Assembly (NCBI RefSeq): GCF_024502345.1 | Contig: NZ_JALDNN010000001.1 | Reading direction: 5' to 3' (one strand) | DNA: 64,000 nt | Source of the DNA: Escherichia coli | GTDB lineage: Bacteria; Pseudomonadota; Gammaproteobacteria; Enterobacterales; Enterobacteriaceae | Program-made: the position numbers and the translations under genes | The notes under the pieces: generated by a model | What the model was told of the DNA's origin: nothing | What the model saw: the letters and a program-made list of their open reading frames with translations, nothing else | The model's database searches: none | Shown here: positions 1 to 29,069 of the stretch, piece after piece | How the letters are laid out: the number at the start of each line of letters is the position of its first letter | Position numbering within the stretch: the stretch's first letter is position 1

Positions 1-2277
1 ATGTCCGTTAAAGCCTCCGGGCGTTTTGTCCCTCCGTCAGCATTTGCCGCAGGCACCGGTAAGGCGTTTACCGGTGCTTATGCATGGAACGCGCCACGCG
101 AGGCTGTAGGGCGCGAAAGACCTCTTACACGTGACGAGATGCGTCAGGTGCAAGGTGTTTTATCCACGATTAATCGCCTGCCTTACTTTTTGCGTTCGCT
201 GTTTACTTCACGCTATGACTACATCCGGCGCAATAAAAGCCCGGTGCACGGGTTTTATTTCCTCACATCCACTTTTCAGCGTCGTTTATGGCCGCGCATT
301 GAGCGTGTGAATCAGCGCCATGAAATGAACACCGACGCGTCGTTGCTGTTTCTGGCAGAGCGTGACCACTATGCGCGCCTGCCGGGAATGAATGACAAGG
401 AGCTGAAAAAGTTTGCCGCCCGTATCTCATCGCAGCTTTTCATGATGTATGAGGAACTCAGCGATGCCTGGGTGGATGCGCATGGCGAAAAAGAATCACT
501 GTTTACGGATGAGGCGCAGGCTCACCTGTATGGTCATGTTGCTGGCGCTGCACGTGCTTTCAATATTTCCCCTCTCTACTGGAAAAAATACCGTAAAGGG
601 CAGATGACCACGAGGCAGGCATATTCTGCCATTGCCCGTCTGTTTAACGATGAGTGGTGGACTCATCAGCTTAAAGGCCAGCGTATGCGCTGGCATGAAG
701 CGTTACTGATAGCTGTCGGGGAGGTCAATAAAGACCGTTCTCCTTATGCCAGTAAACACGCCATTCGTGATGTGCGTGCGCGCCGCCAGGCAAATCTGGA
801 ATTTCTTAAATCGTGTGACCTTGAAAACAGGGAAACCGGCGAGCGCATCGACCTTATCAGTAAGGTGATGGGCAGTATTTCTAATCCTGAAATTCGCCGG
901 ATGGAGCTGATGAACACCATTGCCGGTATTGAGCGTTACGCCGCTGCAGAGGGTGATGTGGGGATGTTTATCACGCTGACCGCGCCGTCAAAGTATCACC
1001 CGACTCGTCAGGTCAGAAAAGGCGAAAGTAAAACCGTTCAGCTTAATCACGGCTGGAACGATGAGGCATTTAATCCAAAGGATGCGCAGCGTTATCTCTG
1101 CCGCATCTGGAGCCTGATGCGCACGGCATTCAAGGATAATGATTTACAGGTCTACGGTTTGCGTGTCGTCGAGCCACACCACGACGGAACGCCGCACTGG
1201 CATATGATGCTTTTTTGTAATCCACGCCAGCGTAACCAGATTATCGAAATCATGCGTCGCTATGCGCTCAAAGAGGATGGTGACGAAAGAGGAGCCGCGC
1301 GAAACCGTTTTCAGGCAAAGCACCTTAACCGGGGCGGTGCTGCGGGATATATCGCGAAATACATTTCAAAAAATATCGACGGCTATGCACTGGATGGTCA
1401 GCTCGATAACGATACCGGTAAGCCGCTTAAAGATACTGCCGCGGCTGTTACCGCATGGGCGTCAACGTGGCGCATCCCGCAATTTAAAACGGTTGGACTG
1501 CCGACAATGGGGGCTTACCGTGAACTACGCAAATTGCCTCGCGGCGTCAGCATTGCTGATGAGTTTGACGAGCGCGTCGAGGCTGCACGCGCCGCCGCAG
1601 ACAGTGGTGATTTTGCGTTGTATATCAGCGCGCAGGGTGGGGCAAATGTCCCGCGCGATTGTCAGACTGTCAGGGTCGCCCGTAGCCCGTCGGATGACGT
1701 TAACGAGTACGAGGAAGAAGTCGAGAGAGTGGTCGGCATTTACGCGCCGCATCTCGGCGCGCGTCATATTCATATCACCAGAACCACGGACTGGCGCATT
1801 GTGCCGAAAGTGCCGGTCGTTGAGCCTTTGACTTTAAAAAGCGGCATCGCCGCGCCTCGGAGTCCTGTCAATAACTGTAGAAAGCTCTCCGGTGGTGATA
1901 CTTCGTTACCGGCTCCCACACCTTCTGAGCACGCCGCAGCAGTGCTTAATCTGGTTGATGACGGTGTTATCGAATGGAATGACCCGGAGGTCGTGAGGGC
2001 GCTCAGGGGGGCATTAAAACACGACCGGAGAACGCCAAACCGTCAGCAAAGAAACGGAAGCCCGTTAAAACAGCATGAAATGGCACCATCGGCCAGACTG
2101 ACCCGGTCGGAACGAATGCAAATTACCCGTATCCGCGTTGACCTTGCTCAGAACGGTATCAGGCCGCAGCGATGGGAGCTCGACGCGCTGGCGCGTGGCG
2201 CGACCGTAAATTATTACGGGAAATCTTTCAATTATCAGGTCGCTGATGAGTGGCCTGGATTTTTGTTACCCATTTGA
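1..2277 (+). CDS. A: P2 gpA rolling-circle replication initiator endonuclease (758 aa)
   Basis: Begins MSVKASGRFVPP like P2 gpA; HUH-type motif TPHWHMMLF and catalytic tyrosine motif GYIAKYISKN seen in translation. Confidence 0.9.
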   Translation: MSVKASGRFVPPSAFAAGTGKAFTGAYAWNAPREAVGRERPLTRDEMRQVQGVLSTINRLPYFLRSLFTSRYDYIRRNKSPVHGFYFLTSTFQRRLWPRIERVNQRHEMNTDASLLFLAERDHYARLPGMNDKELKKFAARISSQLFMMYEELSDAWVDAHGEKESLFTDEAQAHLYGHVAGAARAFNISPLYWKKYRKGQMTTRQAYSAIARLFNDEWWTHQLKGQRMRWHEALLIAVGEVNKDRSPYASKHAIRDVRARRQANLEFLKSCDLENRETGERIDLISKVMGSISNPEIRRMELMNTIAGIERYAAAEGDVGMFITLTAPSKYHPTRQVRKGESKTVQLNHGWNDEAFNPKDAQRYLCRIWSLMRTAFKDNDLQVYGLRVVEPHHDGTPHWHMMLFCNPRQRNQIIEIMRRYALKEDGDERGAARNRFQAKHLNRGGAAGYIAKYISKNIDGYALDGQLDNDTGKPLKDTAAAVTAWASTWRIPQFKTVGLPTMGAYRELRKLPRGVSIADEFDERVEAARAAADSGDFALYISAQGGANVPRDCQTVRVARSPSDDVNEYEEEVERVVGIYAPHLGARHIHITRTTDWRIVPKVPVVEPLTLKSGIAAPRSPVNNCRKLSGGDTSLPAPTPSEHAAAVLNLVDDGVIEWNDPEVVRALRGALKHDRRTPNRQQRNGSPLKQHEMAPSARLTRSERMQITRIRVDLAQNGIRPQRWELDALARGATVNYYGKSFNYQVADEWPGFLLPI

Positions 2278-2537
2278 GTAAAAATGCAGCGTGATTTTAT
2301 ATGCCTTTGAATGGATTATGCGAAGCGCCTCTAAGGCAGATGAGGAGCAATAGCATGCTGAAGTAGAAGGCTAAATTGTATTGAATCGCTAGCATGTAAT
2401 TTAAGGCAGCTATTTGATTCGAGTCATAAAAGAGCATCTATTTCGGCTAATAAAACCATTGCGAGTGACCTTTTGTCGAAGCATAATTCATCTCGAGCGA
2501 AGTCTTGCTAGTCTTTCATCGGAATGATGACAGGCGC

Positions 2538-2568
2538 AAAAAAACCACCCTGGCAGGTGGTTTTTTTG
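2538..2568. terminator. Bidirectional rho-independent terminator
   Basis: A-run, inverted repeat aaccacc/ggtggtt with loop ctggcag, then T-run (aaaaaaaccaccctggcaggtggttttttt). Confidence 0.6.
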
Positions 2569-2579
2569 TTTGAAGCATA

Positions 2580-2693
2580 CTAAAGAATAATACTTACATG
2601 GATATTACTGACGTTTACTGACAAACCACTTGGACTACCATATGGATAGCCAAAGAGGGCCAGAACGAGAATGCAGTAATAGCACTTCTTCAT
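2580..2693 (-). CDS. Hypothetical small hydrophobic peptide, 37 aa (MKKCYYCILVLALFGYPYGSPSGLSVNVSNIHVSIIL)
   Basis: ATG preceded by SD-like GGAGGAGAT; ORF ends just before the bidirectional terminator at 2538-2568; start overlaps stop of upstream minus-strand ORF 2690-2935 (ATGA); below the 60-aa cutoff of the ORF track. Confidence 0.25.
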   Translation of the reverse strand: MKKCYYCILVLALFGYPYGSPSGLSVNVSNIHVSIIL

Positions 2694-3263
2694 ATCTCCT
2701 CCTGTAAGCAGAGGGCAATTTCCGCCGATATATGCGCTTCTAAGGCGGAGTTACTATTTAGCGAAGTCTTGCCCTGAAATAATGCTCTGTTTAAACGCAA
2801 AGTGATCTGGCATATCACCGAACAGAGAGCCTGAACAACACAACATATAGTATGTCGTTGTTTCTGGTTGCATTTTATGTTGTGTAATACTGGTTTTGCA
2901 TCAAGGATGTTTGAGCTTTTTTTGATATAGCTCAAAGTAAAAAGCAGGGACTACGGATGATAAGGTATTGAAAGCAATGTAAATTTTTTAAAGTTATTGG
3001 TGGCTAAAAAATGCACGGTTTCAATATGGCGGACTTAAATAAGCAATTAAAAAAGTCATAAATATCACTAAAATCATGGTGTTACGTTTTTTGTGGGAGC
3101 TGCGGTGACGCTTAAGTTGATTTGTCATTAAATAAGCCGTGCATGCAACAAGTGAATGTTTTTGCATGCGTCGGGGATGCCCGTTCCAGCTGCTTGCGGT
3201 CAGAGCTGGTGCGGATCCATAGTATCTATGCAACTGCATTAAAACCGACTCATGAAGCGGGCG

Positions 3264-3282
3264 GGCGAGGCGGGGAAAGCAC
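3264..3282. other. cos: P2 cos cohesive-end sequence (19 nt GGCGAGGCGGGGAAAGCAC)
   Basis: Exact string present between gene A and Q, where cos lies in P2; the 19-nt sequence is recalled from P2/186 literature. Confidence 0.6.
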
Positions 3283-3421: not shown

Positions 3422-3449
3422 GTAAAAAAGCCGCCCGCAGGCGGCGATG
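3422..3449 (-). terminator. Rho-independent terminator downstream of Q (minus strand)
   Basis: Minus strand reads gccgcctgcgggcggc hairpin followed by a T-run immediately after the Q stop. Confidence 0.55.
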
Positions 3450-3450
3450 T

Positions 3451-4485
3451 TCAGCCGTTGTCAGTGTCCAGTGAGTAGTTTTTAAAGCGGATGACCTCCT
3501 GACCGAGCCAGCCGTTTATCTCGCGGATCCTGTCCTGTAACGGGATAAGCTCATTGCGGACAAAGACCTTTGCCACTTTCTCTATATCACCCAGCGACCC
3601 GACGTTCTCCGGCTTGCCACCCATCAACTGAAAGGGGATGCGGTGCGCGTCCAGCAGGTCTGCGGCGCTGGCTTTTTTGATATTAAAAAAATCATCCTTC
3701 GTTGCCACTTCACTGAGCGGGATAATTTTAATGCCGTCGGCTTTCCCTTGTGGGGCATAGAGAAACAGGTTTTTAAAGTTGTTGCGGCCTTTCGACTTCA
3801 CCATGTTTTCGCGGAGCATTTCGATATCGTTGCGATCCTGCACGGCATCGGTGACGTACATGATGTATCCGGCATGTGCGCCGTTTTCGTAATACTTGCG
3901 GCGGAACAGCGTGGCCGACTCATTCAGCCAGGCAGAGTTAAGGGCGCTGAGATATTCCGGCAGGCCGTACAGCTCCTGATTAATATCCGGCTCCAGCAGG
4001 TGAAACACGGAGCCGGGCGCGAAAGGTGTCGGCTCATGGAAGGACGGCACCCACCAGTAAACATCCTCTTCCACGCCACGGCGGGTATATTTTGCCGGTG
4101 AGGTTTCCAGTCTGATGACCTTACCGGTGGTGCTGTAACGCTTTTCCAGAAACGCATTACCGAACACCAGAAAATCCAGCACAAAGCGGCTGAAATCCTG
4201 CTGGGAAAGCCACGGATGCGGGATAAATGTCGAGGCCAGAATATTGCGTTTGACGTAAATCGGCGAGCTGTGATGCACGGCAGCACGCAGGCTTTTCGCC
4301 AGACCGGTAAAGCTGACCGGCGGCTCATACCATCTGCCGTTACTGATGCACTCGACGTAATCCAGAATGTCACGGCGGTCGAGTACCGGCACCGGCTCAC
4401 CAAAGGTGAATGCCTCCATTTTCGGGGCGCTGGCGGTCATTTTTTTTGCCGCAGGTTGCGGTGTTTTCCCTTTTTTCTTACTCAT
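3451..4485 (-). CDS. Q: P2 gpQ portal protein (344 aa)
   Basis: 344 aa, same length as P2 Q; position next to cos and terminase P; stop overlaps P region. Confidence 0.9.
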   Translation of the reverse strand: MSKKKGKTPQPAAKKMTASAPKMEAFTFGEPVPVLDRRDILDYVECISNGRWYEPPVSFTGLAKSLRAAVHHSSPIYVKRNILASTFIPHPWLSQQDFSRFVLDFLVFGNAFLEKRYSTTGKVIRLETSPAKYTRRGVEEDVYWWVPSFHEPTPFAPGSVFHLLEPDINQELYGLPEYLSALNSAWLNESATLFRRKYYENGAHAGYIMYVTDAVQDRNDIEMLRENMVKSKGRNNFKNLFLYAPQGKADGIKIIPLSEVATKDDFFNIKKASAADLLDAHRIPFQLMGGKPENVGSLGDIEKVAKVFVRNELIPLQDRIREINGWLGQEVIRFKNYSLDTDNG

Positions 4486-6257
4486 CAGTAAAACTCCAGA
4501 ATGGTGGATGTCAGCGGGGTGCTGATACCGGCGGTGAGTGGCTCATTTAACAGGGCGTGCATGGTCGCCCAGGCGAGGTCGGCGTGGCTGGCTTCCTCGC
4601 TGCGGCTGGCCTCATAGGTGGCGCTGCGTCCGCTGCTGGTCATGGTCTTGCGGATAGCCATAAACGAGCTGGTGATGTCGGTGGCGCTGACGTCATATTC
4701 CAGACAGCCACGGCGGATAACGTCTTTTGCCTTGAGCACCATTGCGGTTTTCATTTCCGGCGTGTAGCGGATATCGCGCGCGGCGGGATAGAACGAGCGC
4801 ACGAGCTGGAACACGCCGACACCGAGGCCGGTGGCATCAATCCCGATGTATTCAACGTTATATTTTTCGGTGAGTTTGCGGATGGATTCCGCCTGGGTGG
4901 CAAAGTCCATGCCTTTCCACTGGTGACGCTCAAGTATTCTGAATTTGCCACCGGCCACCACCGGCGGTGCCAGTACCACGCATCCGGCGCTGTCGCCACG
5001 GTGTGACGGGTCGTAACCAATCCATACCGGGCGGGAGCCGAACGGATTGGCGGCAAAGGGTGCATAGTCTTCCCATTCTTCCAGCGTGTCGACCATGCAG
5101 CGTTGCAGCTCCTCGAACGGGAACACCGACGCCTTGTCGTCAACAAATTCACACATGAACAGGTTTTTAAAATCGTCGGCGCTGTTTTCGCGTTTGAGCT
5201 GCTCAATGTCGAACAGCGTGCAGCCACCTTTCAGGGCGTCCTCAATGGTGACAATCTGTCGCCACTGGCCGTCCGCACAGAGAAGCCCACCGGCAAGGGC
5301 GTTATGACTGACGTCGATTTCCACGCGTTCGGCGGCGCTGGCGCGTCCCCGGTTAAACAGTGCACCCGACCAGAACGGGTAGGCGTCGTGCGCCAGCGTG
5401 GACGGGGTGGAGAAATAGGTCGAACGCAGGTGACTCTGTGAGGCCATACCTGATGCCACCTTACGCAGTACCTGAAAATTCGGGATCCAGAAAATCTCGT
5501 CGACGTACAGGTCGCCGTTATGGCTCTGTGCGGTGTTGGAGTTGGTGCCGAGAAAAATCAGTTTTGCGCCGTTATTGCCCAGGACAATCGGGTCACCGGT
5601 CAGGTCAACGTCAACCAGCCGGGCAAAGGCGATGATGTATTCACGGAACACATACGCCTGCGTTTTACTGGCCGACAGAAAAATCTGGTTATGGCCGGTT
5701 TTCAGGGCGCGCAGCAGCGCCTCGCGGGAAAAATAAAACGTTGCGCCAATCTGACGGGATTTCAGGATATCGCGGATGCGGTGCTCAAGCCCGGCGCGAT
5801 ACCAGTGCAGCTGATAGTCGAAAGACTGCTCAAAGAAAATCTGCTCCAGCTTTTCGATGGCCTCGTCACTGAAAAAATTCTTTTTCGGTTTGCGACGCCC
5901 GCCTTTGTTGCGGTTAGCGATGTTCGGATTAAGGTCTGCCTCGTTGCCGGTCTGGCTGTAACGGTTGACCCGTGCCAGTCGTTCAATCTGGCGTCCCAGC
6001 AGGTCAATTTCCTTGAAGTCCCCGCCGGTTTTCTGCGGTTTGATGATGAGCTGGGTCAGCCGCGCTTCCAGACTCATTTCGACACGGCTGATGGGGGCAA
6101 CGCTGTCCCAGCCGTCGCGCTGTTTCCAGCTCTGCACCGTCGGGCGTTTCATCTGCAACATGGCGGCAATCTGCGGCACGGAAAACCCCTGCCAGTACAG
6201 CAGCGCCGCCTGACGACGCGGGTCGTGTAAAAGAGTGGTGTCTGTGGTGATGGTCAT
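4485..6257 (-). CDS. P: P2 gpP terminase large (ATPase) subunit (590 aa from internal ATG)
   Basis: ORF-track frame 4485-6287; start placed at MTITTDTTLL (ATG 6257) to match P2 gpP length; terminase-like translation. Confidence 0.9.
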   Translation of the reverse strand: MTITTDTTLLHDPRRQAALLYWQGFSVPQIAAMLQMKRPTVQSWKQRDGWDSVAPISRVEMSLEARLTQLIIKPQKTGGDFKEIDLLGRQIERLARVNRYSQTGNEADLNPNIANRNKGGRRKPKKNFFSDEAIEKLEQIFFEQSFDYQLHWYRAGLEHRIRDILKSRQIGATFYFSREALLRALKTGHNQIFLSASKTQAYVFREYIIAFARLVDVDLTGDPIVLGNNGAKLIFLGTNSNTAQSHNGDLYVDEIFWIPNFQVLRKVASGMASQSHLRSTYFSTPSTLAHDAYPFWSGALFNRGRASAAERVEIDVSHNALAGGLLCADGQWRQIVTIEDALKGGCTLFDIEQLKRENSADDFKNLFMCEFVDDKASVFPFEELQRCMVDTLEEWEDYAPFAANPFGSRPVWIGYDPSHRGDSAGCVVLAPPVVAGGKFRILERHQWKGMDFATQAESIRKLTEKYNVEYIGIDATGLGVGVFQLVRSFYPAARDIRYTPEMKTAMVLKAKDVIRRGCLEYDVSATDITSSFMAIRKTMTSSGRSATYEASRSEEASHADLAWATMHALLNEPLTAGISTPLTSTILEFY

Positions 6258-6430
6258 GAATACCTCGCCGTGATGAATACACGGCAAGGCTACTGAGTCG
6301 CGCCCCGCGATTCGCTAAGGTGCTGTTGTGTCAGTGATAAGCCATCCGGGACTGATGGCGGAGGATGTGCATCGTCGGGAAACTGATGCCGACATGTGAC
6401 TCCTCTAATCACTATTCAGGACTCCTGACA

Positions 6431-7285
6431 ATGGCAAAAAAAGCATCAAAATTCTTTCGTATCGGCGTTGAGGGTGACACCTGTGACGGGCGTGTCATCA
6501 GTGCGCAGGATATTCAGGAAATGGCCGAAACCTTTGACCCGCGAGTCTATGGTTGCCGCATTAACCTGGAACATCTGCGCGGCATCCTGCCTGACGGTAT
6601 TTTTAAGCGTTATGGCGATGTGGCCGAACTGAAGGCCGAAAAGATTGCCGATGATTCGGCGCTGAAAGGCAAATGGGCGCTGTTTGCGAAAATCACCCCG
6701 ACCGATGACCTTATCGCGATGAACAAGGCCGCGCAGAAGGTCTATACCTCAATGGAAATTCAGCCGAACTTTGCCAATACCGGCAAATGTTATCTGGTGG
6801 GTCTGGCCGTCACCGATGACCCGGCAAGCCTCGGCACGGAATACCTGGAATTCTGCCGCACGGCAAAACACAACCCCCTGAACCGCTTCAAATTAAGCCC
6901 TGAAAACCTGATTTCAGTGGCAACGCCTGTTGAGCTGGAATTTGAAGACCTGCCTGAAACCGTGTTCACCGCCCTGACCGAAAAGGTGAAATCCATTTTT
7001 GGCCGCAAACAGGCCAGCGATGACGCCCGTCTGAATGACGTGCATGAAGCGGTGACCGCTGTTGCTGAACATGTGCAGGAAAAACTGAGTGCCACTGAGC
7101 AGCGCCTCGCTGAGATGGAAACCGCCTTTTCCGCACTTAAGCAGGATGTGACTGACAGGGCGGATGAAACCAGCCAGGCATTCACCCGCCTGAAAAACAG
7201 CCTCGACCACACCGAAAGTCTGACCCAGCAGCGCCGCAGCAAGGCCACCGGCGGTGGCGGTGACGCCCTGATGACGAACTGCTGA
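6431..7285 (+). CDS. O: P2 gpO capsid scaffolding protein (284 aa)
   Basis: Start placed at MAKKASKFFRIGVEGDTC within ORF 6365-7285; divergent from P as in P2. Confidence 0.9.
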   Translation: MAKKASKFFRIGVEGDTCDGRVISAQDIQEMAETFDPRVYGCRINLEHLRGILPDGIFKRYGDVAELKAEKIADDSALKGKWALFAKITPTDDLIAMNKAAQKVYTSMEIQPNFANTGKCYLVGLAVTDDPASLGTEYLEFCRTAKHNPLNRFKLSPENLISVATPVELEFEDLPETVFTALTEKVKSIFGRKQASDDARLNDVHEAVTAVAEHVQEKLSATEQRLAEMETAFSALKQDVTDRADETSQAFTRLKNSLDHTESLTQQRRSKATGGGGDALMTNC

Positions 7286-7343
7286 CCGGCGTCAGTCAGT
7301 CCGGGAAAACCTTCACGATTAACCCTTAATTTCAGGAAAAACT

Positions 7344-8417
7344 ATGCGCCAGGAAACCCGCTTTAAATTTAATGCCTATCTGTCCCGTGTTGCCGAACTG
7401 AACGGCATCGACGCCGGTGATGTGTCGAAAAAATTCACCGTTGAACCGTCGGTCACCCAGACCCTGATGAACACCATGCAGGAGTCCTCTGATTTTCTGA
7501 CCCGCATCAACATTGTGCCGGTCAGCGAAATGAAAGGGGAAAAAATTGGCATCGGTGTCACCGGCTCCATCGCCAGCACCACCGACACCGCCGGTGGCAC
7601 CGAGCGTCAGCCGAAGGACTTCTCGAAGCTGGCGTCAAACAAGTACGAATGCGACCAGATTAACTTCGATTTTTATATCCGCTACAAAACGCTGGACCTG
7701 TGGGCGCGTTATCAGGATTTCCAGCTCCGTGTCCGTAATGCCATTATCAAACGCCAGTCCCTTGATTTAATCATGGCCGGTTTTAACGGCGTGAGGCGTG
7801 CCGAAACCTCTGACCGCAGCAGTAACCCGATGCTGCAGGATGTGGCGGTCGGCTGGCTGCAGAAATACCGCAATGAAGCCCCGGCGCGCGTGATGAGCAA
7901 GGTTACTGACGAGGAAGGTCACACGACCTCTGAGGTCATCCGCGTGGGTAAGGGCGGTGATTATGCCAGCCTCGATGCACTGGTGATGGATGCGACCAAC
8001 AACCTGATTGAGCCGTGGTATCAGGAAGACCCTGACCTTGTGGTGATTGTGGGGCGTCAGCTACTGGCGGACAAGTATTTCCCCATCGTTAACAAGGAGC
8101 AGGACAACAGCGAAATGCTGGCCGCTGACGTCATCATCAGCCAGAAACGCATCGGTAACCTGCCGGCGGTACGCGTCCCGTACTTCCCGGCGGATGCGAT
8201 GCTCATCACGAAGCTGGAAAACCTGTCCATCTACTACATGGATGACAGCCATCGCCGCGTGATTGTGGAAAACCCGAAACTCGACCGCGTGGAGAACTAC
8301 GAGTCAATGAACATTGATTACGTGGTGGAAGACTACGCCGCCGGTTGTCTGGTGGAAAAAATTAAGGTCGGTGATTTCTCCACACCGGCTAAGGCGACCG
8401 CAGAGCCGGGAGCGTAA
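7344..8417 (+). CDS. N: P2 gpN major capsid protein (357 aa)
   Basis: 357 aa, P2 N size and position after O. Confidence 0.9.
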   Translation: MRQETRFKFNAYLSRVAELNGIDAGDVSKKFTVEPSVTQTLMNTMQESSDFLTRINIVPVSEMKGEKIGIGVTGSIASTTDTAGGTERQPKDFSKLASNKYECDQINFDFYIRYKTLDLWARYQDFQLRVRNAIIKRQSLDLIMAGFNGVRRAETSDRSSNPMLQDVAVGWLQKYRNEAPARVMSKVTDEEGHTTSEVIRVGKGGDYASLDALVMDATNNLIEPWYQEDPDLVVIVGRQLLADKYFPIVNKEQDNSEMLAADVIISQKRIGNLPAVRVPYFPADAMLITKLENLSIYYMDDSHRRVIVENPKLDRVENYESMNIDYVVEDYAAGCLVEKIKVGDFSTPAKATAEPGA

Positions 8418-8420
8418 CCG

Positions 8421-9164
8421 ATGACGAGTCCCGCACAGCGCCACATGATGCGGGTCTCGGCAGCGATGACCGCGCAGCGGGAAGCCGCCCCGCTGCGACA
8501 TGCAACTGTCTATGAGCAGATGCTGGTTAAGCTCGCCGCAGACCAGCGCACACTGAAAGCGATTTATTCAAAAGAGCTGAAGGCCGCAAAAAAACGCGAA
8601 CTGCTGCCGTTCTGGTTGCCGTGGGTGAACGGCGTGCTGGAGCAGGGCAAAGGTGCACAGGATGACATTCTGATGACGGTCATGCTGTGGCGTCTGGATA
8701 CCGGCGATATTGCCGGTGCGCTGGAGATTGCCCGTTATGCCCTGAAATACGGCCTGGCCATGCCGGGGAAACACCGCCGTACCCCGCCGTACATGTTCAC
8801 CGAGGAGGTGGCGCTTGCTGCCATGCGCGCTCACGCTGCCGGTGAGTCTGTGGATACCCGCCTGCTGACGGACACCCTTGAACTGACCGCCACGGCTGAC
8901 ATGCCTGATGAAGTGCGCGCAAAGCTGCACAAAATCACCGGTCTGTTTCTGCGTGACGCTGGTGATGCCGCAGGTGCGCTGGCGCATCTGCAACGTGCGA
9001 CACAGCTCGACTGTCAGGCAGGCGTCAAAAAAGAGATTGAACGACTGGAGCGGGAGCTGAAACCGAAGCCGGAGCCGCAGCCCAAAGCGGTCACCCGCGC
9101 CCCGCGTAAGACACGGAGCGTGACACCGGCAAAACGTGGACGCCCGAAAAAGAAAGCCAGTTAA
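8421..9164 (+). CDS. M: P2 gpM terminase small/endonuclease subunit (247 aa)
   Basis: 247 aa, position after N; basic C-terminal tail. Confidence 0.9.
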   Translation: MTSPAQRHMMRVSAAMTAQREAAPLRHATVYEQMLVKLAADQRTLKAIYSKELKAAKKRELLPFWLPWVNGVLEQGKGAQDDILMTVMLWRLDTGDIAGALEIARYALKYGLAMPGKHRRTPPYMFTEEVALAAMRAHAAGESVDTRLLTDTLELTATADMPDEVRAKLHKITGLFLRDAGDAAGALAHLQRATQLDCQAGVKKEIERLERELKPKPEPQPKAVTRAPRKTRSVTPAKRGRPKKKAS

Positions 9165-9263
9165 CAACCGAATGCGCCCCGCGCCAGGGCGGCACGCCGG
9201 TCAGTGAGGGTGAATCACCTGACACTGCACCGGCGTCCACCGCCCGACTTTTCAGAGGTAGTC

Positions 9264-9773
9264 ATGATGACGCTGATTATTCCGCGAAAGGAGGCTCCCG
9301 TGTCCGGTGAGGGTACGGTGGTCATCCCGCAACCGGCAGGCGACGAGCCGGTGATTAAAAACACGTTCTTTTTTCCCGATATCGACCCGAAGCGCGTCCG
9401 GGAACGTATGCGCCTTGAGCAGACCGTCGCCCCCGCCCGTCTGCGTGAGGCCATCAAGTCAGGCATGGCTGAAACGAATGCGGAGCTGTACGAGTACCGC
9501 GAACAGAAAATTGCCGCCGGTTTTACGCGTCTGGCGGACGTCCCGGCGGACGACATCGACGGTGAAAGCATCAAAGTTTTTTACTACGAGCGCGCCGTGT
9601 GTGCGATGGCGACCGCGTCGCTTTATGAGCGTTATCGCGGCGTGGATGCCAGTGCGAAAGGCGACAAGAAGGCTGACAGCATTGACAGCACCATTGATGA
9701 GCTGTGGCGGGATATGCGCTGGGCGGTGGCGCGCATCCAGGGCAAGCCGCGCTGCATCGTGAGTCAAATCTGA
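9264..9773 (+). CDS. L: P2 gpL capsid completion protein (169 aa)
   Basis: Start placed at MMTLIIPRKEAP within ORF 9204-9773. Confidence 0.85.
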   Translation: MMTLIIPRKEAPVSGEGTVVIPQPAGDEPVIKNTFFFPDIDPKRVRERMRLEQTVAPARLREAIKSGMAETNAELYEYREQKIAAGFTRLADVPADDIDGESIKVFYYERAVCAMATASLYERYRGVDASAKGDKKADSIDSTIDELWRDMRWAVARIQGKPRCIVSQI

Positions 9774-9976: not shown

Positions 9977-9979
9977 CGC

Positions 9980-10758: not shown

Positions 10759-10772
10759 ACGGAGTAAACACC

Positions 10773-15882: not shown

Positions 15883-15892
15883 GTGAGGAATA

Positions 15893-18211: not shown

Positions 18212-18214
18212 TTT

Positions 18215-19673: not shown

Positions 19674-19877
19674 ACCATTGTTATCAAGAGATTGCTTTGT
19701 ATTGCGCGGGAAACGTCTAGTTTGAATTAAGGAATTGTGAGGCGGAAGATGGGATTTAGGAATTTGGTTAGAGTTAGCAATGTTAATAAATGGGCCTAAT
19801 TTCACTTTAAATCAAATTCCTAAATATTAAAGAAAGCAAGCTGGCCTACATAAACAGCCAGCCTTGGATAATTCAAT

Positions 19878-22214: not shown

Positions 22215-22240
22215 AGGCGGGCGAATTGCCCGCCTTTTCT
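22215..22240 (+). terminator. Rho-independent terminator upstream of FI
   Basis: ggcgggcg-aatt-gcccgcc hairpin followed by ttttct. Confidence 0.55.
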
Positions 22241-22338
22241 GTATCTGTTGTTTCATCCACTGACCAGACAGGTCAAATAGCGTCTCATGCTCTGCCCAAC
22301 GGAAAATAGTTGCACCCATTAACCACGGAGTTAAACGG

Positions 22339-23529
22339 ATGAGTGACTATCATCACGGCGTGCAGGTGCTGGAGATTAACGACGGCACCCGCGTCATTTC
22401 CACCGTATCCACTGCCATTGTCGGCATGGTCTGTACGGCCAGCGATGCAGATGCGGAAACCTTCCCCCTCAATAAACCGGTGTTGATTACCAATGTGCAG
22501 AGCGCAATTGCAAAGGCCGGTAAAAAAGGCACGCTGGCGGCATCGTTGCAGGCCATCGCTGACCAGTCAAAACCGGTCACCGTTGTCGTGCGCGTGGAAG
22601 ACGGCACCGGTGATGACGAGGAAACGAAACTCGCGCAGACCGTTTCCAATATCATCGGCACCACCGACGAAAACGGTCAGTACACCGGACTGAAAGCCCT
22701 GCTGGCGGCGGAGTCGGTAACCGGTGTTAAACCGCGTATTCTCGGCGTGCCGGGACTGGACACCAAAGAGGTGGCTGTTGCACTGGCATCAGTCTGTCAG
22801 AAGCTGCGCGCTTTCGGGTATATCAGCGCATGGGGCTGTAAAACTATTTCCGAGGTGAAAGCCTACCGCCAGAATTTCAGCCAGCGTGAGTTGATGGTCA
22901 TCTGGCCGGATTACCTCGCATGGGATACGGTCACCAGTACCACCGCCACCGCGTATGCCACCGCCCGTGCGCTGGGTCTGCGCGCTAAAATCGACCAGGA
23001 GCAGGGCTGGCATAAAACACTGTCCAACGTTGGGGTGAACGGTGTTACCGGCATCAGCGCATCTGTATTCTGGGATTTGCAGGAGTCCGGCACCGATGCT
23101 GACCTGCTGAATGAGTCAGGCGTCACAACGCTGATTCGCCGTGACGGTTTCCGCTTCTGGGGTAACCGTACCTGCTCTGATGACCCGCTGTTCCTCTTTG
23201 AAAACTACACCCGCACCGCGCAGGTACTGGCCGACACGATGGCTGAGGCGCACATGTGGGCGGTGGACAAGCCCATCACCGCAACGCTGATTCGCGACAT
23301 CGTTGACGGCATCAATGCCAAATTCCGTGAGCTGAAAACAAACGGTTATATCGTGGATGCGACCTGCTGGTTCAGCGAAGAATCCAACGATGCGGAAACC
23401 CTCAAGGCCGGAAAACTGTATATCGACTATGACTATACACCGGTGCCTCCTCTCGAAAACCTGACCCTGCGCCAGCGTATTACCGATAAATACCTGGCGA
23501 ATCTGGTCACCCCGGTTAACAGCAATTAA
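22339..23529 (+). CDS. FI: P2 gpFI tail sheath protein (396 aa)
   Basis: 396 aa, size and position. Confidence 0.9.
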   Translation: MSDYHHGVQVLEINDGTRVISTVSTAIVGMVCTASDADAETFPLNKPVLITNVQSAIAKAGKKGTLAASLQAIADQSKPVTVVVRVEDGTGDDEETKLAQTVSNIIGTTDENGQYTGLKALLAAESVTGVKPRILGVPGLDTKEVAVALASVCQKLRAFGYISAWGCKTISEVKAYRQNFSQRELMVIWPDYLAWDTVTSTTATAYATARALGLRAKIDQEQGWHKTLSNVGVNGVTGISASVFWDLQESGTDADLLNESGVTTLIRRDGFRFWGNRTCSDDPLFLFENYTRTAQVLADTMAEAHMWAVDKPITATLIRDIVDGINAKFRELKTNGYIVDATCWFSEESNDAETLKAGKLYIDYDYTPVPPLENLTLRQRITDKYLANLVTPVNSN

Positions 23530-23541
23530 GGAGCCTGACCG

Positions 23542-24060
23542 ATGGCAATGCCGCGCAAACTCAAGTTAATGAACGTCTTTCTGAACGGCTACAGCTATCA
23601 GGGCGTTGCAAAGTCCGTCACGCTGCCAAAACTGACCCGTAAACTCGAAAACTATCGCGGTGCGGGGATGAACGGCAGCGCACCGATAGACCTCGGCCTT
23701 GATGACGATGCGCTGTCAATGGAGTGGTCGCTCGGTGGTTTCCCGGATTCGGTTATCTGGGAGCTTTACGCCGCAACCGGTGTGGATGCCGTACCGATTC
23801 GTTTTGCAGGCTCTTACCAGCGCGACGATACCGGCGAAACGGTGGCCGTCGAGGTGGTCATGCGTGGACGTCAGAAAGAAATCGACACCGGCGAGGGTAA
23901 ACAGGGAGAAGACACCGAGTCGAAAATCTCCGTGGTCTGCACCTATTTCCGGCTGACGATGGACGGTAAGGAGCTGGTCGAAATCGACACCATCAACATG
24001 ATTGAGAAGGTGAACGGCGTCGACCGGCTGGAGCAACACCGCCGCAATATCGGCCTGTGA
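23542..24060 (+). CDS. FII: P2 gpFII tail tube protein (172 aa)
   Basis: 172 aa, follows sheath. Confidence 0.9.
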   Translation: MAMPRKLKLMNVFLNGYSYQGVAKSVTLPKLTRKLENYRGAGMNGSAPIDLGLDDDALSMEWSLGGFPDSVIWELYAATGVDAVPIRFAGSYQRDDTGETVAVEVVMRGRQKEIDTGEGKQGEDTESKISVVCTYFRLTMDGKELVEIDTINMIEKVNGVDRLEQHRRNIGL

Positions 24061-24116
24061 TTTTCATCCGGTCAGCCAGGCTGACCGGTTAACCCTGATT
24101 AAGAAGTGAGAAAACC

Positions 24117-24392
24117 ATGAACAAAGAAAATGTGATTACCCTGGACAATCCGGTCAAACGTGGTGAGCAGGTCATCGAACAGGTCACGCTGATGAAACCC
24201 AGTGCGGGGACGCTGCGCGGTGTCAGTCTGGCTGCGGTCGCAAACTCCGAAGTCGATGCACTGATTAAAGTGCTGCCGCGCATGACGGCACCGATGCTGA
24301 CCGAGCAGGAGGTCGCCGCACTGGAACTGCCTGACCTTGTGGCGCTGGCCGGTAAGGTGGTCGGTTTTTTGTCGCCGAACTCGGTGCAGTGA
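24117..24392 (+). CDS. E: P2 gpE tail assembly chaperone (91 aa)
   Basis: 91 aa between tube and tape measure. Confidence 0.85.
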   Translation: MNKENVITLDNPVKRGEQVIEQVTLMKPSAGTLRGVSLAAVANSEVDALIKVLPRMTAPMLTEQEVAALELPDLVALAGKVVGFLSPNSVQ

Positions 24393-24544
24393 CGTTCCCG
24401 AAAAATCTCTCGGTCGATGACCTGATGGCGGATGTGGCAGTGATATTTCACTGGCCGCCATCAGAACTGTATCCCATGAGCCTGACCGAACTCATCACAT
24501 GGCGCGAAAAGGCGCTCCGGCGAAGCGGAAACACGAATGAGTAA
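24117..24544 (+). CDS. E': P2 gpE+E' produced by programmed -1 ribosomal frameshift (about 142 aa)
   Basis: Slippery GGTTTTTTG run at 24363-24371 near the end of E; the -1 frame stays open to TAA at 24542-24544, overlapping the T start. Confidence 0.65.
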
Positions 24545-26984
24545 CAATGTAAAATTACAGGTATTGCTCAGGGCTGTTGACCAGGCATCCCGCCCGTTTA
24601 AATCCATCCGCACAGCGAGTAAGTCGCTGTCGGGGGATATCCGGGAAACACAAAAATCACTACGCGAGCTGAACGGTCACGCATCCCGTATTGAGGGATT
24701 CCGCAAGACCAGCGCACAGCTCGCCGTGACTGGTCATGCACTTGAAAAGGCACGGCAGGAGGCCGAAGCCCTTGCCACACAGTTTAAAAACACCGAACGT
24801 CCGACCCGTGCTCAGGCGAAAGTGCTGGAATCCGCAAAGCGAGCGGCGGAGGACTTACAGGCGAAATATAACCGCCTGACGGATTCCGTTAAACGCCAGC
24901 AGCGGGAACTGGCCGCTGTGGGAATTAATACCCGCAATCTTGCACATGATGAGCAGGGACTGAAAAACCGTATCAGTGAAACCACCGCACAGCTTAACCG
25001 GCAGCGTGACGCGCTGGCGCGTGTCAGTGCGCAACAGGCAAAACTTAACGCAGTAAAACAGCGTTATCAGGCAGGCAAGGAACTGGCCGGAAATATGGCC
25101 TCAGTGGGCGCTGCCGGTGTGGGGATTGCGGCGGCGGGAACGATGGCCGGAGTTAAGTTGCTGATGCCCGGTTATGAGTTTGCGCAGAAAAACTCAGAAT
25201 TGCAGGCCGTGCTCGGAGTGGCAAAAGACTCCGCCGAAATGACCGCACTACGCAAACAGGCGCGCCAGCTCGGCGACAATACCGCCGCCTCGGCGGATGA
25301 TGCGGCCGGTGCACAGATAATCATCGCGAAAGCGGGTGGGGATGTTGATGCCATTCAGGCGGCAACGCCGGTCACGCTGAATATGGCGCTGGCGAACCGT
25401 CGCACGATGGAAGAAAACGCCGCCCTGCTGATGGGGATGAAATCCGCCTTTCAGCTTTCAAACGATAAGGTCGCTCATATTGGGGATGTTCTCTCCATGA
25501 CGATGAACAAAACCGCCGCCGATTTTGACGGTATGAGCGATGCGCTGACCTATGCCGCACCTGTGGCAAAAAATGCCGGTGTCAGCATTGAAGAAACCGC
25601 CGCAATGGTCGGGGTGCTGCATGATGCAAAAATCACAGGCTCAATGGCGGGGACGGGAAGCCGTGCCGTGTTAAGCCGCCTGCAGGCACCGACGGGAAAA
25701 GCATGGGATGCACTCAAAGAGCTTGGAGTGAAAACCTCAGACAGCAAGGGAAACACCCGGTCAATATTTACCATTCTGAAAGAAATGCAGGCCAGTTTTG
25801 AGAAAAACCGGCTCGGTACTGCCCAGCAGGCTGAATACATGAAAACCATTTTCGGGGAGGAGGCCAGCTCAGCCGCCGCCGTGCTGATGACTGCCGCCTC
25901 AACCGGAAAGCTGGACAAACTGACCGCTGCGTTTAAAGCCTCAGACGGGAAGACCGCGGAGCTGGTAAATATCATGCAAGACAACCTCGGCGGTGACTTT
26001 AAGGAGTTTCAGTCCGCTTATGAGGCGGTAGGGACTGACCTGTTTGACCAGCAGGAAGGTGCGCTGCGTAAGCTCACGCAGACGGCCACAAAGTATGTGT
26101 TAAAACTCGACGGCTGGATACAGAAAAACAAATCACTGGCGTCAACCATCGGCCTCATTGCCGGTGGCGCACTGGTGCTGACTGGCATCATCGGTGCCAT
26201 TGGTCTTGTAGCCTGGCCGGTTATCACCGGCATCAATGCCATCATCGCGGCAGCAGGCGCAATGGGGGCAGTCTTCACGACGGTTGGCAGTGCTGTTATG
26301 ACCGCCATCGGGGCGATTAGCTGGCCGGTTGTGGCCGTGGTGGCCGCAATTGTCGCCGGGGCGTTGCTTATCCGTAAATACTGGGAGCCTGTCAGCGCAT
26401 TCTTTGGCGGTGTGGTTGAAGGGCTGAAAGTGGCATTTGCGCCGGTGGGGGAACTGTTCACGCCACTTAAGCCGGTGTTTGACTGGCTGGGTGAAAAGTT
26501 ACAGGCCGCGTGGCAGTGGTTTAAAAACCTGATTGCCCCGGTCAAAGCCACTCAGGACACCCTGAACAGTTGCCGTGACACGGGGGTCATGTTCGGGCAG
26601 GCACTGGCTGACGCGCTGATGCTGCCGCTTAATGCGTTCAACAAACTGCGCAGCGGTATTGACTGGGTACTGGAAAAACTCGGTGTTATCAACAAAGAGT
26701 CAGACACACTTGACCAGACCGCCGCCAGAACTCAAGCCGCCACGTATGGCAGCGGTGGTTATATTCCGGCGACCAGCTCTTATGCAGGCTATCAGGCTTA
26801 TCAGCCAGTCACGGCACCGGCTGGCCGCTCTTATGTGGACCAGAGTAAAAACGAATATCACATCAACCTGACGGGCGGTACTGCGCCGGGAACACAGCTT
26901 GACCGCCAGTTACAGGATGCGCTCGAAAAATACGAGCGGGATAAACGTGCGCGCGCCCGTGCCAGCATGATGCATGACGGTTAA
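24537..26984 (+). CDS. T: P2 gpT tail tape measure protein (815 aa)
   Basis: 815 aa; coiled-coil N-terminal half and Gly/Ala-rich hydrophobic segments. Confidence 0.9.
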   Translation: MSNNVKLQVLLRAVDQASRPFKSIRTASKSLSGDIRETQKSLRELNGHASRIEGFRKTSAQLAVTGHALEKARQEAEALATQFKNTERPTRAQAKVLESAKRAAEDLQAKYNRLTDSVKRQQRELAAVGINTRNLAHDEQGLKNRISETTAQLNRQRDALARVSAQQAKLNAVKQRYQAGKELAGNMASVGAAGVGIAAAGTMAGVKLLMPGYEFAQKNSELQAVLGVAKDSAEMTALRKQARQLGDNTAASADDAAGAQIIIAKAGGDVDAIQAATPVTLNMALANRRTMEENAALLMGMKSAFQLSNDKVAHIGDVLSMTMNKTAADFDGMSDALTYAAPVAKNAGVSIEETAAMVGVLHDAKITGSMAGTGSRAVLSRLQAPTGKAWDALKELGVKTSDSKGNTRSIFTILKEMQASFEKNRLGTAQQAEYMKTIFGEEASSAAAVLMTAASTGKLDKLTAAFKASDGKTAELVNIMQDNLGGDFKEFQSAYEAVGTDLFDQQEGALRKLTQTATKYVLKLDGWIQKNKSLASTIGLIAGGALVLTGIIGAIGLVAWPVITGINAIIAAAGAMGAVFTTVGSAVMTAIGAISWPVVAVVAAIVAGALLIRKYWEPVSAFFGGVVEGLKVAFAPVGELFTPLKPVFDWLGEKLQAAWQWFKNLIAPVKATQDTLNSCRDTGVMFGQALADALMLPLNAFNKLRSGIDWVLEKLGVINKESDTLDQTAARTQAATYGSGGYIPATSSYAGYQAYQPVTAPAGRSYVDQSKNEYHINLTGGTAPGTQLDRQLQDALEKYERDKRARARASMMHDG

Positions 26985-26998
26985 GGAGGTGACGAAAA

Positions 26999-27478
26999 AT
27001 GATGCTCGCGTTAGGTATGTTTGTTTTTATGCGCCAGACGCTGCCACACCAGGCCATGCAGCGTGAATCAGATTATCGCTGGCCGTCAAATTCCCGTATC
27101 GGTAAACGGGATGCCTTTCAGTTTCTCGGTGTGGGTGAGGAAAACATTACGCTTGCCGGTGTGCTTTATCCCGAACTGACAGGCGGAAAGCTGACGATGA
27201 CCACGCTCAGGATGATGGCAGAGGAAGGTCGGGCGTGGCCGTTGCTGGATGGCACCGGCATGATTTACGGCATGTATGTCATCAGCAGGGTGAGTGAAAC
27301 AGGGAGTATTTTCTTTGCAGACGGCACACCCCGGAAAATTGATTTTACGCTGTCGCTCACCCGCGTTGATGAATCACTGGCCGCGCTTTATGGCGATATC
27401 GGTAAACAGGCGGAATCGCTCATCGGTAAGGCTGGCAGTATGGCGACCAGATTCACGGGTATGACGGGGGCGGGATAA
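26999..27478 (+). CDS. U: P2 gpU tail protein (159 aa)
   Basis: 159 aa, size and position. Confidence 0.9.
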   Translation: MMLALGMFVFMRQTLPHQAMQRESDYRWPSNSRIGKRDAFQFLGVGEENITLAGVLYPELTGGKLTMTTLRMMAEEGRAWPLLDGTGMIYGMYVISRVSETGSIFFADGTPRKIDFTLSLTRVDESLAALYGDIGKQAESLIGKAGSMATRFTGMTGAG

Positions 27479-28641
27479 TGCTGGATGCGCTGACATTTGA
27501 TGCAGGCAGTACGCTGACGCCGGATTACATGCTGATGCTCGACAGCAGGGATATTACCGGCAATATCAGCGACCGTCTGATGAGCATGACCCTGACGGAT
27601 AACCGGGGCTTTGAGGCTGACCAGCTTGATATTGAACTGAACGATGCCGACGGGCAGGTCGGGCTGCCGGTTCGTGGCGCTGTCCTGACGGTGTATATCG
27701 GCTGGAAAGGTTTTGCCCTGGTATGCAAAGGGAAATTTACCGTTGATGAGGTTGAACACCGGGGCGCACCGGATGTGGTCACCATCCGTGCCCGGAGTGC
27801 AGATTTTCGTGGGACGCTCAATTCCCGCCGGGAAGGCTCCTGGCATGACACCACGCTCGGTGCGATTGTTGAGGCGATAGCCTCCCGTAACAGGCTGGAA
27901 GCCAGTGTCGCTCCGTCACTGGCCGGAATTAAAATCCCGCACATCGACCAGTCGCAGGAGTCTGATGTGAAATTCCTGACCCGTCTTGCTGAACGCAACG
28001 GCGGCGAGGTGTCGGTAAAAATGGGAAAACTGCTGTTTCTCAAAGCAGGGCAGGGGGTGACGGCCAGCGGTAAAAAAATCCCGCAGATTACCATCACCCG
28101 CAGCGACGGCGACCGTCATCATTTTGCGATTGCTGACCGTGGAGCTTACACCGGCGTAACGGCAAAGTGGTTACACACCAAAGACCCGAAGCCGCAAAAG
28201 CAGAAGGTAAAACTGAAACGCAAAAAGAAAGAAAAACACCTGCGCGCACTGGAGCACCCGAAAGCGAAACCGGTCACGCAGAAGAAAGCGCCAAAAGTAC
28301 CGGAAGCGCGCGAAGGTGAATACATGGCCGGTGAAGCTGACAACGTTTTTGCCCTGACTACGGTATATGCCACAAAAGCGCAGGCCATGCGCGCCGCTCA
28401 GGCAAAGTGGGACAAACTGCAACGGGGCGTCGCGGAGTTCTCCATCAGCCTGGCTACCGGTCGGGCAGATATTTACACGGAAACACCGGTTAAAGTGTCA
28501 GGCTTTAAGCGCGTCATAGACGAGCAGGACTGGACAATCACTAAGGTGACACATTTTCTGAATAATAGCGGCTTCACGACGTCCTTAGAGCTTGAGGTCA
28601 GGCTTTCTGATGTGGAGTACGAAACAGAAGATGATGAGTGA
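27478..28641 (+). CDS. D: P2 gpD tail protein (387 aa)
   Basis: 387 aa, size and position. Confidence 0.9.
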   Translation: MLDALTFDAGSTLTPDYMLMLDSRDITGNISDRLMSMTLTDNRGFEADQLDIELNDADGQVGLPVRGAVLTVYIGWKGFALVCKGKFTVDEVEHRGAPDVVTIRARSADFRGTLNSRREGSWHDTTLGAIVEAIASRNRLEASVAPSLAGIKIPHIDQSQESDVKFLTRLAERNGGEVSVKMGKLLFLKAGQGVTASGKKIPQITITRSDGDRHHFAIADRGAYTGVTAKWLHTKDPKPQKQKVKLKRKKKEKHLRALEHPKAKPVTQKKAPKVPEAREGEYMAGEADNVFALTTVYATKAQAMRAAQAKWDKLQRGVAEFSISLATGRADIYTETPVKVSGFKRVIDEQDWTITKVTHFLNNSGFTTSLELEVRLSDVEYETEDDE

Positions 28642-28722
28642 TGTTTATTATTTATCTGTTTGTTTTATAAGGATAAATTAACTAAAATGGCACCATCAAC
28701 AAAACCGGAAGAGGTGCTCGCG

Positions 28723-28941
28723 ATGTTTCATTGTCCTTTATGCCAGCATGCCGCACATGCGCGTACAAGTCGCTATATCACTGACACGACAAAAGAGCGT
28801 TATCACCAGTGCCAGAACGTGAATTGCAGCGCCACGTTCATCACTTATGAGTCGGTACAGCGATACATCGTTAAGCCGGGAGAAGTCCACGCCGTAAGGC
28901 CGCACCCGTTGCCGTCAGGGCAGCAAATTATGTGGATGTAA
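28723..28941 (+). CDS. ogr: P2 Ogr late-gene transcriptional activator, zinc-finger (72 aa)
   Basis: MFHCPLCQHAAHARTSRYITDTTKERYHQCQNVNCSATF has the Cys4 arrangement; last gene before att. Confidence 0.9.
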   Translation: MFHCPLCQHAAHARTSRYITDTTKERYHQCQNVNCSATFITYESVQRYIVKPGEVHAVRPHPLPSGQQIMWM

Positions 28942-28952
28942 TTACAAACAGA

Positions 28953-28979
28953 AAGCCCCTCAGTCGAGGGGCTTTTTTG
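28953..28979 (+). terminator. Rho-independent terminator after ogr
   Basis: agcccctc-agtc-gaggggct hairpin followed by a T-run. Confidence 0.65.
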
Positions 28980-29042
28980 TCGATGTGGTCAATGTGTGGA
29001 CGTGACCAGAAATAAATCCTTTTATTTCATCGTATTACGCGT

Positions 29043-29069
29043 AAAAAATAAGCCCGTGTAAGGGAGATT
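29043..29069. other. attR: Probable P2 attachment core (prophage/host junction) overlapping the cyaR 3' end
   Basis: AAAAAATAAGCCCGTGTAAGGGAGATT matches the 27-nt P2 att core as recalled; lies exactly where phage sequence gives way to host backbone. Confidence 0.5.

Follow-up and report, generated by a model that had tools for sequence, protein, structure and literature searches.

Positions 1-29069 of the window (the whole stretch of 64,000 nucleotides of Escherichia coli DNA that was analysed) carry a block of genes from A to ogr that is free of gaps, well preserved and collinear with phage P2 (NC_001895), whose order A, cos, Q-P, O-S, V-G, FI-D, ogr it shares. A tblastn search with all 42 P2 proteins as queries matched the essential proteins over their full length, mostly at 94-100% identity, and the cos 19-mer, the ori nick site, the E/E' slip site, the pO/pP site, the Int P-arm and the 27-bp att core are identical to those of P2. 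These results bear out the initial annotation, which had described a P2-like prophage with the genes from A to ogr intact. Against isolated P2-like phages (R18C, fiAA91-ss, Wphi and others), megablast gave 96-97% identity.

The window opens on gene A (1-2277, plus strand), which encodes a rolling-circle replication endonuclease of 758 aa that matches residues 1-754 of the 761 of P2 A at 97% identity as well as Pfam Phage_GPA, and which contains the ori nick site as a 31-mer (1844-1874). An identical 758-aa gpA was found in 54 blocks of the collection. Between A and cos lies a variable region (2278-3263), AT-rich and almost gene-free, in the slot that holds orf91, tin and old in P2; the sole ORF noted there is a hydrophobic one of 37 aa on the minus strand (2580-2693), beside a hairpin at ca. 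2538-2568. The small ORFs of this region rendered no matches to Pfam, PADLOC or PHROG, and an Rfam search for RNA genes gave sub-threshold, chance-level matches only. The cohesive-end 19-mer of cos, GGCGAGGCGGGGAAAGCAC (3264-3282, plus strand), corresponds exactly to P2 cosL/cosR and adjoins Q. It is followed by an exact copy of the P2 tQ terminator (3424-3445) and, on the minus strand, by full-length genes for the Q portal (3451-4485, 98.8% to P2) and the P large terminase (4485-6257, 99.7%).

The late genes are represented by single full-length matches at 93.6-100% identity in the case of Q, P, O, N, M, L, X, Y, K, lysA, lysB, lysC, R, V, W, J, I, FI, FII, E, T, U, D and ogr. An Ogr activator site (6321-6351, plus strand), in which 31 of 31 positions agree with P2, is common to pP and pO, two late promoters that diverge from each other. 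The O operon (6431-12637, plus strand) comprises O (6431-7285), N (7344-8417), M (8421-9164), L (9264-9773), X (9773-9976), Y (9980-10261), K (10261-10758), lysA (10773-11198), lysB (11186-11611), lysC (11466-11756), R (11719-12186) and S (12179-12637). The S product (152 aa) is of full length, yet only 57% identical to that of P2, and thus an alternative allele; it matches TIGR01635 (tail_comp_S). In the V operon (13467-18742, plus strand), V (13467-14102), W (14099-14446), J (14451-15359) and I (15352-15882) precede the tail-fibre gene H (15893-18211, 772 aa) and G (18215-18742). H is a mosaic, with an N-terminal part of 251 aa at 96% and a C-terminus at 59% to P2 by tblastn, and has the Pfam domains Phage_tail_fib, Phage_fiber_2 and Gp34_trimer, whereas G is 75% identical to P2 G. 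The F operon (22339-28641, plus strand), all of whose genes are of full length and at 98-100% to P2, includes the genes for the FI sheath (22339-23529) and the FII tube (23542-24060), E (24117-24392), T for the tape measure (24537-26984), U (26999-27478) and D (27478-28641), with the slip site of the E+E' -1 frameshift at 24358-24387. Downstream, ogr (28723-28941, plus strand) encodes a zinc-finger late-gene activator of 72 aa that is 100% identical to P2 Ogr, with its promoter at 28660-28689 and a terminator exact to that of P2 at 28952-28975.

The promoter regions pV (ca. 13390-13466) and pF (ca. 22236-22338) differ from P2, each with more than 7 mismatches to the P2 activator sites. Similar regions are found in R18C (NC_049461), an element from rabbit deposited as a phage genome, which is the best phage match to the window (77% coverage, 96.8% identity): positions 12100-13600, which include pV, align to it gap-free at 96.7%, and pF is 95.6% identical. 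It is only from this similarity to R18C that both promoters would be predicted to function. R18C also shares the 152-aa S allele and the extra gene of 251 aa that follows it, at ca. 96% and gap-free, but its A-cos slot is occupied by a Fic-family gene and its G-FI slot by small genes of other kinds, and it differs in int, C, cox and the length of the tail fibre (669 aa).

Non-essential cargo has been swapped with respect to P2, and orf91, tin, old, orf30 and fun(Z) are absent from the window. The slot of orf30 is occupied by the 251-aa gene (12634-13389, plus strand), whose start overlaps the stop codon of S. Since the N-terminus of its product carries a CxxC..EH..N..CxxCN pattern, we read it as a putative HNH (His-Me finger) nuclease. 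The slot between G and FI, in which P2 has fun(Z), contains two genes on the minus strand. One is a type IV (methyl-directed) HNH restriction endonuclease gene (18865-19805; PADLOC PDLC03656, mREase_IV) that has decayed into three fragments in three different frames (19605-19805, 19223-19432 and 18865-19101), which cover model positions 4-29, 89-151 and 200-277 of 277; the last fragment matches Pfam HNH (1.1e-12). As no single intact ORF is left, its sequence is that of a pseudogene. The other gene, PDC-S71 (19878-21692), encodes 604 aa, matches PADLOC PDLC05077 over model positions 3-589 of 589 (E 1e-218), lies in a region of 33% GC, and is transcribed opposite to the late genes.

PDC systems have been described as a set of 145 candidates, and a literature search for PDC-S71 or its accession WP_000170427 found no mention of either. 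We consider PDC-S71 a candidate for a single-gene phage defence with a putative nuclease-like fold. It is possible, though somewhat short of probable, that it is a functional nuclease which, as a single protein of a new family, acts against phages. In that case, it would have an N-terminal region resembling RdgC-like DNA-binding proteins and a PD-(D/E)xK-like C-terminal domain with a non-canonical D...HxK site, would be expressed in the lysogen from the strand opposite to the late genes, as is P2 fun(Z), and would travel between P2 prophages and the integrative defence islands of E. coli and Providencia as a module of 3.3 kb. A conserved two-gene system made up of PDC-S71 and the HNH gene was also considered and was rejected: in Providencia and in STEC309 the HNH gene next to PDC-S71 has already degenerated, the neighbour in Aeromonas is a different gene, located upstream, with 277 aa and without a Pfam match, and the Pseudomonas syringae loci have no neighbour in common with those of E. 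coli, Providencia or Aeromonas. Cargo hotspots in P2 have been described in the gpA-gpQ interval and among the late and tail genes (Rousset et al. 2022, PMC9122126; bioRxiv 10.64898/2026.02.27.708500), and the variable cargo of the window occupies these positions. In contrast to the elements in those reports, however, the gpA-gpQ slot is essentially empty here, and the slot among the tail genes holds PDC-S71, which is a candidate and not a validated system.

At its right end the element is delimited by attR (28980-29069, plus strand), which consists of the Int P-arm (28980-29007), an IHF-site region with 6 mismatches and the att core of 27 bp, AAAAAATAAGCCCGTGTAAGGGAGATT (29043-29069), in which all 27 positions agree with P2. 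As judged from its sequence, the visible part is structurally intact with regard to A and ori, cos, portal, terminase, head, lysis, tail and tail-fibre genes, the E/E' site, Ogr and its site, and attR, although intact reading frames are compatible with inactivation by missense changes. The att core overlaps the gene of the small RNA CyaR (29046-29131, minus strand; Rfam RF00112, 100.7 bits, model positions 1-85 of 85), and integration leaves cyaR intact because the core itself forms its terminator and 3' end. P2 Int would have integrated the prophage with yegR on one side and cyaR/yegQ on the other, at the 27-bp core that forms the terminator of cyaR, a location that we take to be the classic P2 site locI. 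In K-12, cyaR is followed by a cryptic prophage of 629 bp, PR-X, and then by yegR, in agreement with the initial annotation, according to which only ogrK and yegZ are kept there. PR-X lies at the same site and in the same orientation as the element of the window, with ogr adjoining cyaR and yegQ, but no more than 629 bp are left of it, with ogrK and part of D, whereas the window has the entire A-ogr block. The description of the backbone as K-12-like was likewise correct: positions 28435-64000 align to K-12 at 94-98% identity, and the differences in the flank are an insertion of ca. 770 bp with parDE and a third sib/ibs repeat.

The same annotation had placed an apparently complete prophage at positions 1-29069. 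The end of this interval holds, since 29069 is the last base of the att core, but its start does not, position 1 being the edge of the window and not the end of the prophage. Because base 1 is the first base of the gene A ATG (the source record apparently begins there), attL, int, C, cox, orf78, B and orf80-83, some 3.7 kb in all, lie beyond the window, which by itself gives no verdict on completeness. The state of the left end was therefore considered in relatives. The nearest one, GCA_036296765.1, is collinear with positions 1-28211 of the window without gaps and shows 126 mismatches, 123 of them within a recombined patch (5500-11500) and only 3 outside it. Its left end comprises yegR, attL, int (337 aa, 100% to P2 Int), C (99 aa, 65%), cox (91 aa, 84%), orf78, B (166 aa, 99%) and orf80-83, and the core of attL (locus L004, positions 6316-6342; 27/27) is identical to that of the window. 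Full-length int, C, cox and B were found at all four loci with an identical 758-aa gpA for which upstream sequence was shown (L003-L006). By analogy with the nearest relative, the left end of the element (attL, int, C, cox, orf78, B and orf80-83) is probably intact as well. As a whole, the locus is in all likelihood best explained as a P2-type (Peduovirus) temperate prophage of ca. 32.7 kb, of which positions 1-29069 would be the right-hand 29.07 kb (89%). If its left end is intact, it would be a potentially viable P2-like phage that is not SOS-inducible, the lysogenic state would be held by a C repressor of an immunity class other than that of P2, as the divergence of C and Cox in the relative would imply, and excision would need Int plus Cox.

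Decay at this locus is nevertheless real, because related elements have been damaged. The closest complete genome, that of E. coli O19:H7 730V1 (NZ_CP061764.1; 91% coverage and 98.2% identity by megablast against complete RefSeq E. coli genomes), has its prophage at the same site, with the same H and G and with the module of PDC-S71 and the decayed HNH gene at 99.9% (only a remnant of 51 aa is annotated for the latter). Unlike in the nearest relative, IS5 truncates int in 730V1, and C, cox, orf78 and B are missing, while the block from A to ogr is still intact; it further differs from the window in its A-Q cargo and in its S-V cargo, a gene of 357 aa on the minus strand. Logan assembly SRR6111843 shows a member of this lineage from which two large segments have been deleted, and K-12 PR-X can be seen as the end point of such decay. 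The element of the window could, in the same way, be a defective or cryptic prophage whose left end is disrupted as in 730V1, so that it is locked in, or can neither maintain nor exit lysogeny, its late genes notwithstanding. We regard this as unlikely, since it is the relative differing by 3 mismatches outside one recombined patch that has the intact left end and the perfect attL core, all four of the other loci with the identical gpA have their switch and integration genes at full length, and no frameshift was found across 29 kb, which argues for recent activity or recent acquisition. A domesticated contractile-tail element, of the tailocin type, kept by the host and no longer a phage, would also account for intact tail genes. 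Tail modules of the P2 type are the ancestors of R-type bacteriocins. However, such an element would be expected to lose the head, portal, terminase, cos, replication and lysis functions and att, all of which are intact here and ca. 97-100% P2-like, and this explanation is barely credible.

Switches of the P2 type are not known to be SOS-inducible, whereas that of the 186 type, which has Tum, is. From the integrity of the late, lysis and replication genes, the initial annotation had concluded that the element may be inducible, with mitomycin C and plaque formation on E. coli C as tests. This does not follow, because late-gene integrity carries no information on induction. Some P2-like prophages are indeed SOS-inducible, for instance the tum-bearing, 186-type prophage of E. 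coli HS (PMC11195241). Induction of this kind needs Tum and a 186-type cI, and a tblastn search of the window and of the relative's left end for homologues of tum, 186-type cI and cII gave nothing better than E 0.005, the matches being short and off-target. Neither was a perfect LexA box (CTGT-N8-ACAG) found in the window. Coliphage 186 itself (NC_001317), of the SOS-inducible branch, shares the general P2-like architecture but has cI, apl, cII and a LexA-controlled tum. The nearest relative carries instead the simpler C/Cox switch of the P2 type (PMC3448106). A complete prophage that is inducible by mitomycin C and forms plaques on E. coli C is accordingly a very improbable reading, and inducibility by DNA damage is doubtful, a judgement drawn from the general biology of P2 and, by analogy, from the switch region of the relative. 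Given that switch and the negative searches for tum and for a perfect LexA box, a negative outcome with mitomycin C would not refute viability. Nor would an absence of plaques on E. coli C be decisive, because the C-terminus of H, presumably the receptor-binding part, has diverged from that of P2 and the indicator may not suit.

The P2-type prophage that we favour as the explanation of the locus is an ordinary element, since 811 of 5426 complete E. coli genomes contain a yegR-attL-int junction; mildly new content is limited to a few candidate cargo genes. With ca. 15% of complete genomes bearing a P2-like prophage at cyaR/yegR, and with a biology that is textbook knowledge, the prophage itself matters little. 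Many public assemblies start at gpA. Assemblies rotated to that start split the prophage over the record ends, so that completeness calls made on linear windows or records are either erroneous or impossible to decide. In ordinary P2-like prophages of this kind, the cargo slots carry candidate genes, here PDC-S71 and the HNH-like gene of 251 aa, which would be cheap to clone and to test for phage exclusion.

The segment at window 1-29069 is a new mosaic of a very well known kind, that of the P2-like prophages. An ORF listing combined with tblastn of all 42 phage P2 proteins against the window indicated that P2 gene order is preserved throughout, gene A (1-2277) being followed by a short variable region and cos, then by Q and P on the minus strand, the O operon (O, N, M, L, X, Y, K, lysA, lysB, lysC, R, S), the V operon (V, W, J, I, H, G), a low-GC insert, the F operon (FI, FII, E/E', T, U, D) and ogr. 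Each essential P2 protein rendered one full-length tblastn match (93.6-100% identity), except S, G and H. S is an alternative allele, only 57% identical to P2 S but still matching TIGR01635; G is 75% identical to its P2 counterpart; and H is mosaic, with its N-terminal 251 aa 96% identical to P2 H and its C-terminus 59%. Secondary BLAST hits also revealed an imperfect repeat within this tail-fibre gene (16408-16894), consisting of ca. 355-bp segments, 87% identical, with an offset of 131 bp.

Exact copies of P2 sequence were found for the ori nick site within A (1844-1874), the 19-nt cos end (3264-3282), the Ogr site between pP and pO (6321-6351), the E/E' slippery site (24358-24387), the Int P-arm (28980-29007), the 27-bp att core (29043-29069), and the tQ and ogr terminators. 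For pV and pF, the activator sites known from P2 had no match within 7 mismatches in the window; the corresponding regions, as well as the module of S and the 251-aa gene, are ca. 96% identical, without gaps, to those of the sequenced P2-like phage R18C (NC_049461). These full-length protein matches and exact P2 sites bear out, far beyond chance, the A-to-ogr block described in the initial annotation, whose account of the visible part is accurate.

The att core corresponds to the 3' end of cyaR, which is present in full length (29046-29131, minus strand; Rfam) and followed by yegQ. We take this to be locI, the preferred site of P2, which reportedly was shown long ago to hold a remnant in K-12. 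The same K-12 site comprises cyaR, the 629-bp cryptic prophage PR-X (ogrK and yegZ, a fragment of D) and yegR, so that the proposed location at the ogrK/yegZ remnant holds, as does the K-12-like nature of the backbone: the flank (yegP, baeRS, mdtDCBA, sib/ibs repeats, then yegL through the wca genes) is 94-98% identical to K-12 out to 64000. The sib/ibs repeats (43240-44043, minus strand) number three in tandem (Rfam RF00113, 140-145 bits each), against two in K-12 (sibA and sibB). A parDE type II toxin-antitoxin pair (30678-31227, minus strand; ParE_toxin, E 1.8e-13; ParD_antitoxin, E 1.1e-18) occupies a ca. 770-bp insertion between yegQ and yegP that is missing from K-12 and from E. coli O19:H7 730V1, the closest complete genome; in metagenome contigs with the same ParE, the cyaR site is empty in some and prophage-occupied in others. 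Of 5426 complete E. coli genomes, 811 matched a 401-bp probe across the yegR-attL-int junction at ≥80% coverage, while the K-12-type yegZ-yegR junction was found in 359, and P2-like sequence of some kind in 3415. The prophage belongs to a common type and occupies the site usual for it.

Base 1 of the window is the ATG of gene A. Many public E. coli chromosome records likewise open at the gpA ATG: the match starts at base 1 of the record in 8 of the 25 best complete-genome hits, and in a 4.9-Mb contig (L007). Presumably, a rotation step or tool takes gpA for a replication-initiator gene and sets it as base 1, so that the prophage is split across both ends of the record; if so, the source record would carry attL, int, C, cox, orf78, B and orf80-83 at its opposite end. 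Among complete RefSeq E. coli genomes, coverage reaches 91% at most. The nearest relative, GCA_036296765.1, is collinear with window 1-28211 without gaps (126 mismatches, no indels), and 123 of the mismatches fall within 5500-11500 (P to lysB), a stretch that looks like a patch acquired from another P2-like phage by homologous recombination. The left end of GCA_036296765.1 opens with yegR and an attL core that is perfect over its 27 bp, and continues with a 337-aa Int identical to that of P2, a 99-aa C (65% to P2 C), a 91-aa Cox (84% to P2 Cox), orf78, a 166-aa B (99% to P2 B) and orf80-83. With this relative as a proxy, the prophage would measure about 32.75 kb, with 88.7% of it inside the window. 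Completeness is not to be assumed, however, since in 730V1 (L001, 10285-12194) int is truncated by IS5 and there is no C, cox, orf78 or B even though A to ogr looks perfect, and since the prophage in the Logan assembly SRR6111843 (L025, 1-13100), of the same lineage and at the same site, has lost two large internal segments (from Q to Y, and from the middle of V to D) but retains int, C, cox, B, A, K to S, the 251-aa gene and ogr. The latter is an intermediate toward a K-12-like remnant. On balance, the left end of the prophage studied here is probably intact, and a complete prophage with its left end beyond the window edge is plausible.

Whether the prophage can be induced does not follow from the integrity of its late genes. 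By textbook accounts, neither UV nor mitomycin C induces P2 itself, and its release is only spontaneous and at a low rate; mitomycin C would therefore make a poor refuting test, and E. coli C is an uncertain indicator because the C-terminus of H has diverged. Among P2-like phages, SOS inducibility belongs to those that have a 186-type cI/apl/cII switch and a LexA-controlled tum, such as the tum-carrying prophage of E. coli HS (PMC11195241). In GCA_036296765.1 the switch is a simple C/Cox pair of the P2 type (PMC3448106). Searches by tblastn with Tum, CI, Apl, CII and Orf97 of 186 yielded no meaningful match, either in the window or in the left end of that relative, and the window contains no perfect LexA box. 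The suggestion that the element may be inducible is, on these grounds, probably wrong.

What distinguishes this prophage from P2 is its non-essential cargo. The A-to-cos slot, the main defence hotspot (PMC9122126), carries tin and old in P2 but 986 bp of AT-rich DNA here. Its sole ORF (2580-2693, minus strand) encodes a hydrophobic 37-aa product and adjoins a strong GC-rich hairpin (ca. 2538-2568) that is flanked on either side by runs of T and A. The slot, this ORF included, had no recognisable database match; the gene is also called in the relatives L006, L007 and L025, and could encode a small membrane peptide or a type I toxin. In the G-to-FI slot, where P2 has fun(Z), lies a 3.6-kb insert of 33% GC. 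It contains a gene for a type IV HNH restriction enzyme, now split over three reading frames, and a gene of 604 aa that matches the PADLOC family PDC-S71 over its whole length (E 1e-218). "Guilt by embedding" is the approach from which the PDC systems, 145 candidates for a role in defence, were put forward (bioRxiv 10.1101/2024.01.29.577857); our literature search found no paper on PDC-S71 itself. The family comprises ca. 590-aa proteins, all annotated as hypothetical, from Gammaproteobacteria, Bacteroidota and Campylobacterota. The same 3.3-kb module, 99.8% identical and with the HNH gene already decayed, is present in a non-P2 island of STEC309. In a Providencia rettgeri island (L033, 136-7748) that adjoins an integrase and smpB, three other modification-dependent nuclease genes (PvuRts1I-like/SRA, HNH_2 and Mrr_cat) precede a PDC-S71 of 94% identity, after which comes an HNH remnant of 25 aa; more distant homologues stand alone. 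This genomic context lends no more than circumstantial support to a candidate role of PDC-S71 in defence. The mildly novel material is confined to these cargo candidates, in an element that is otherwise ordinary.
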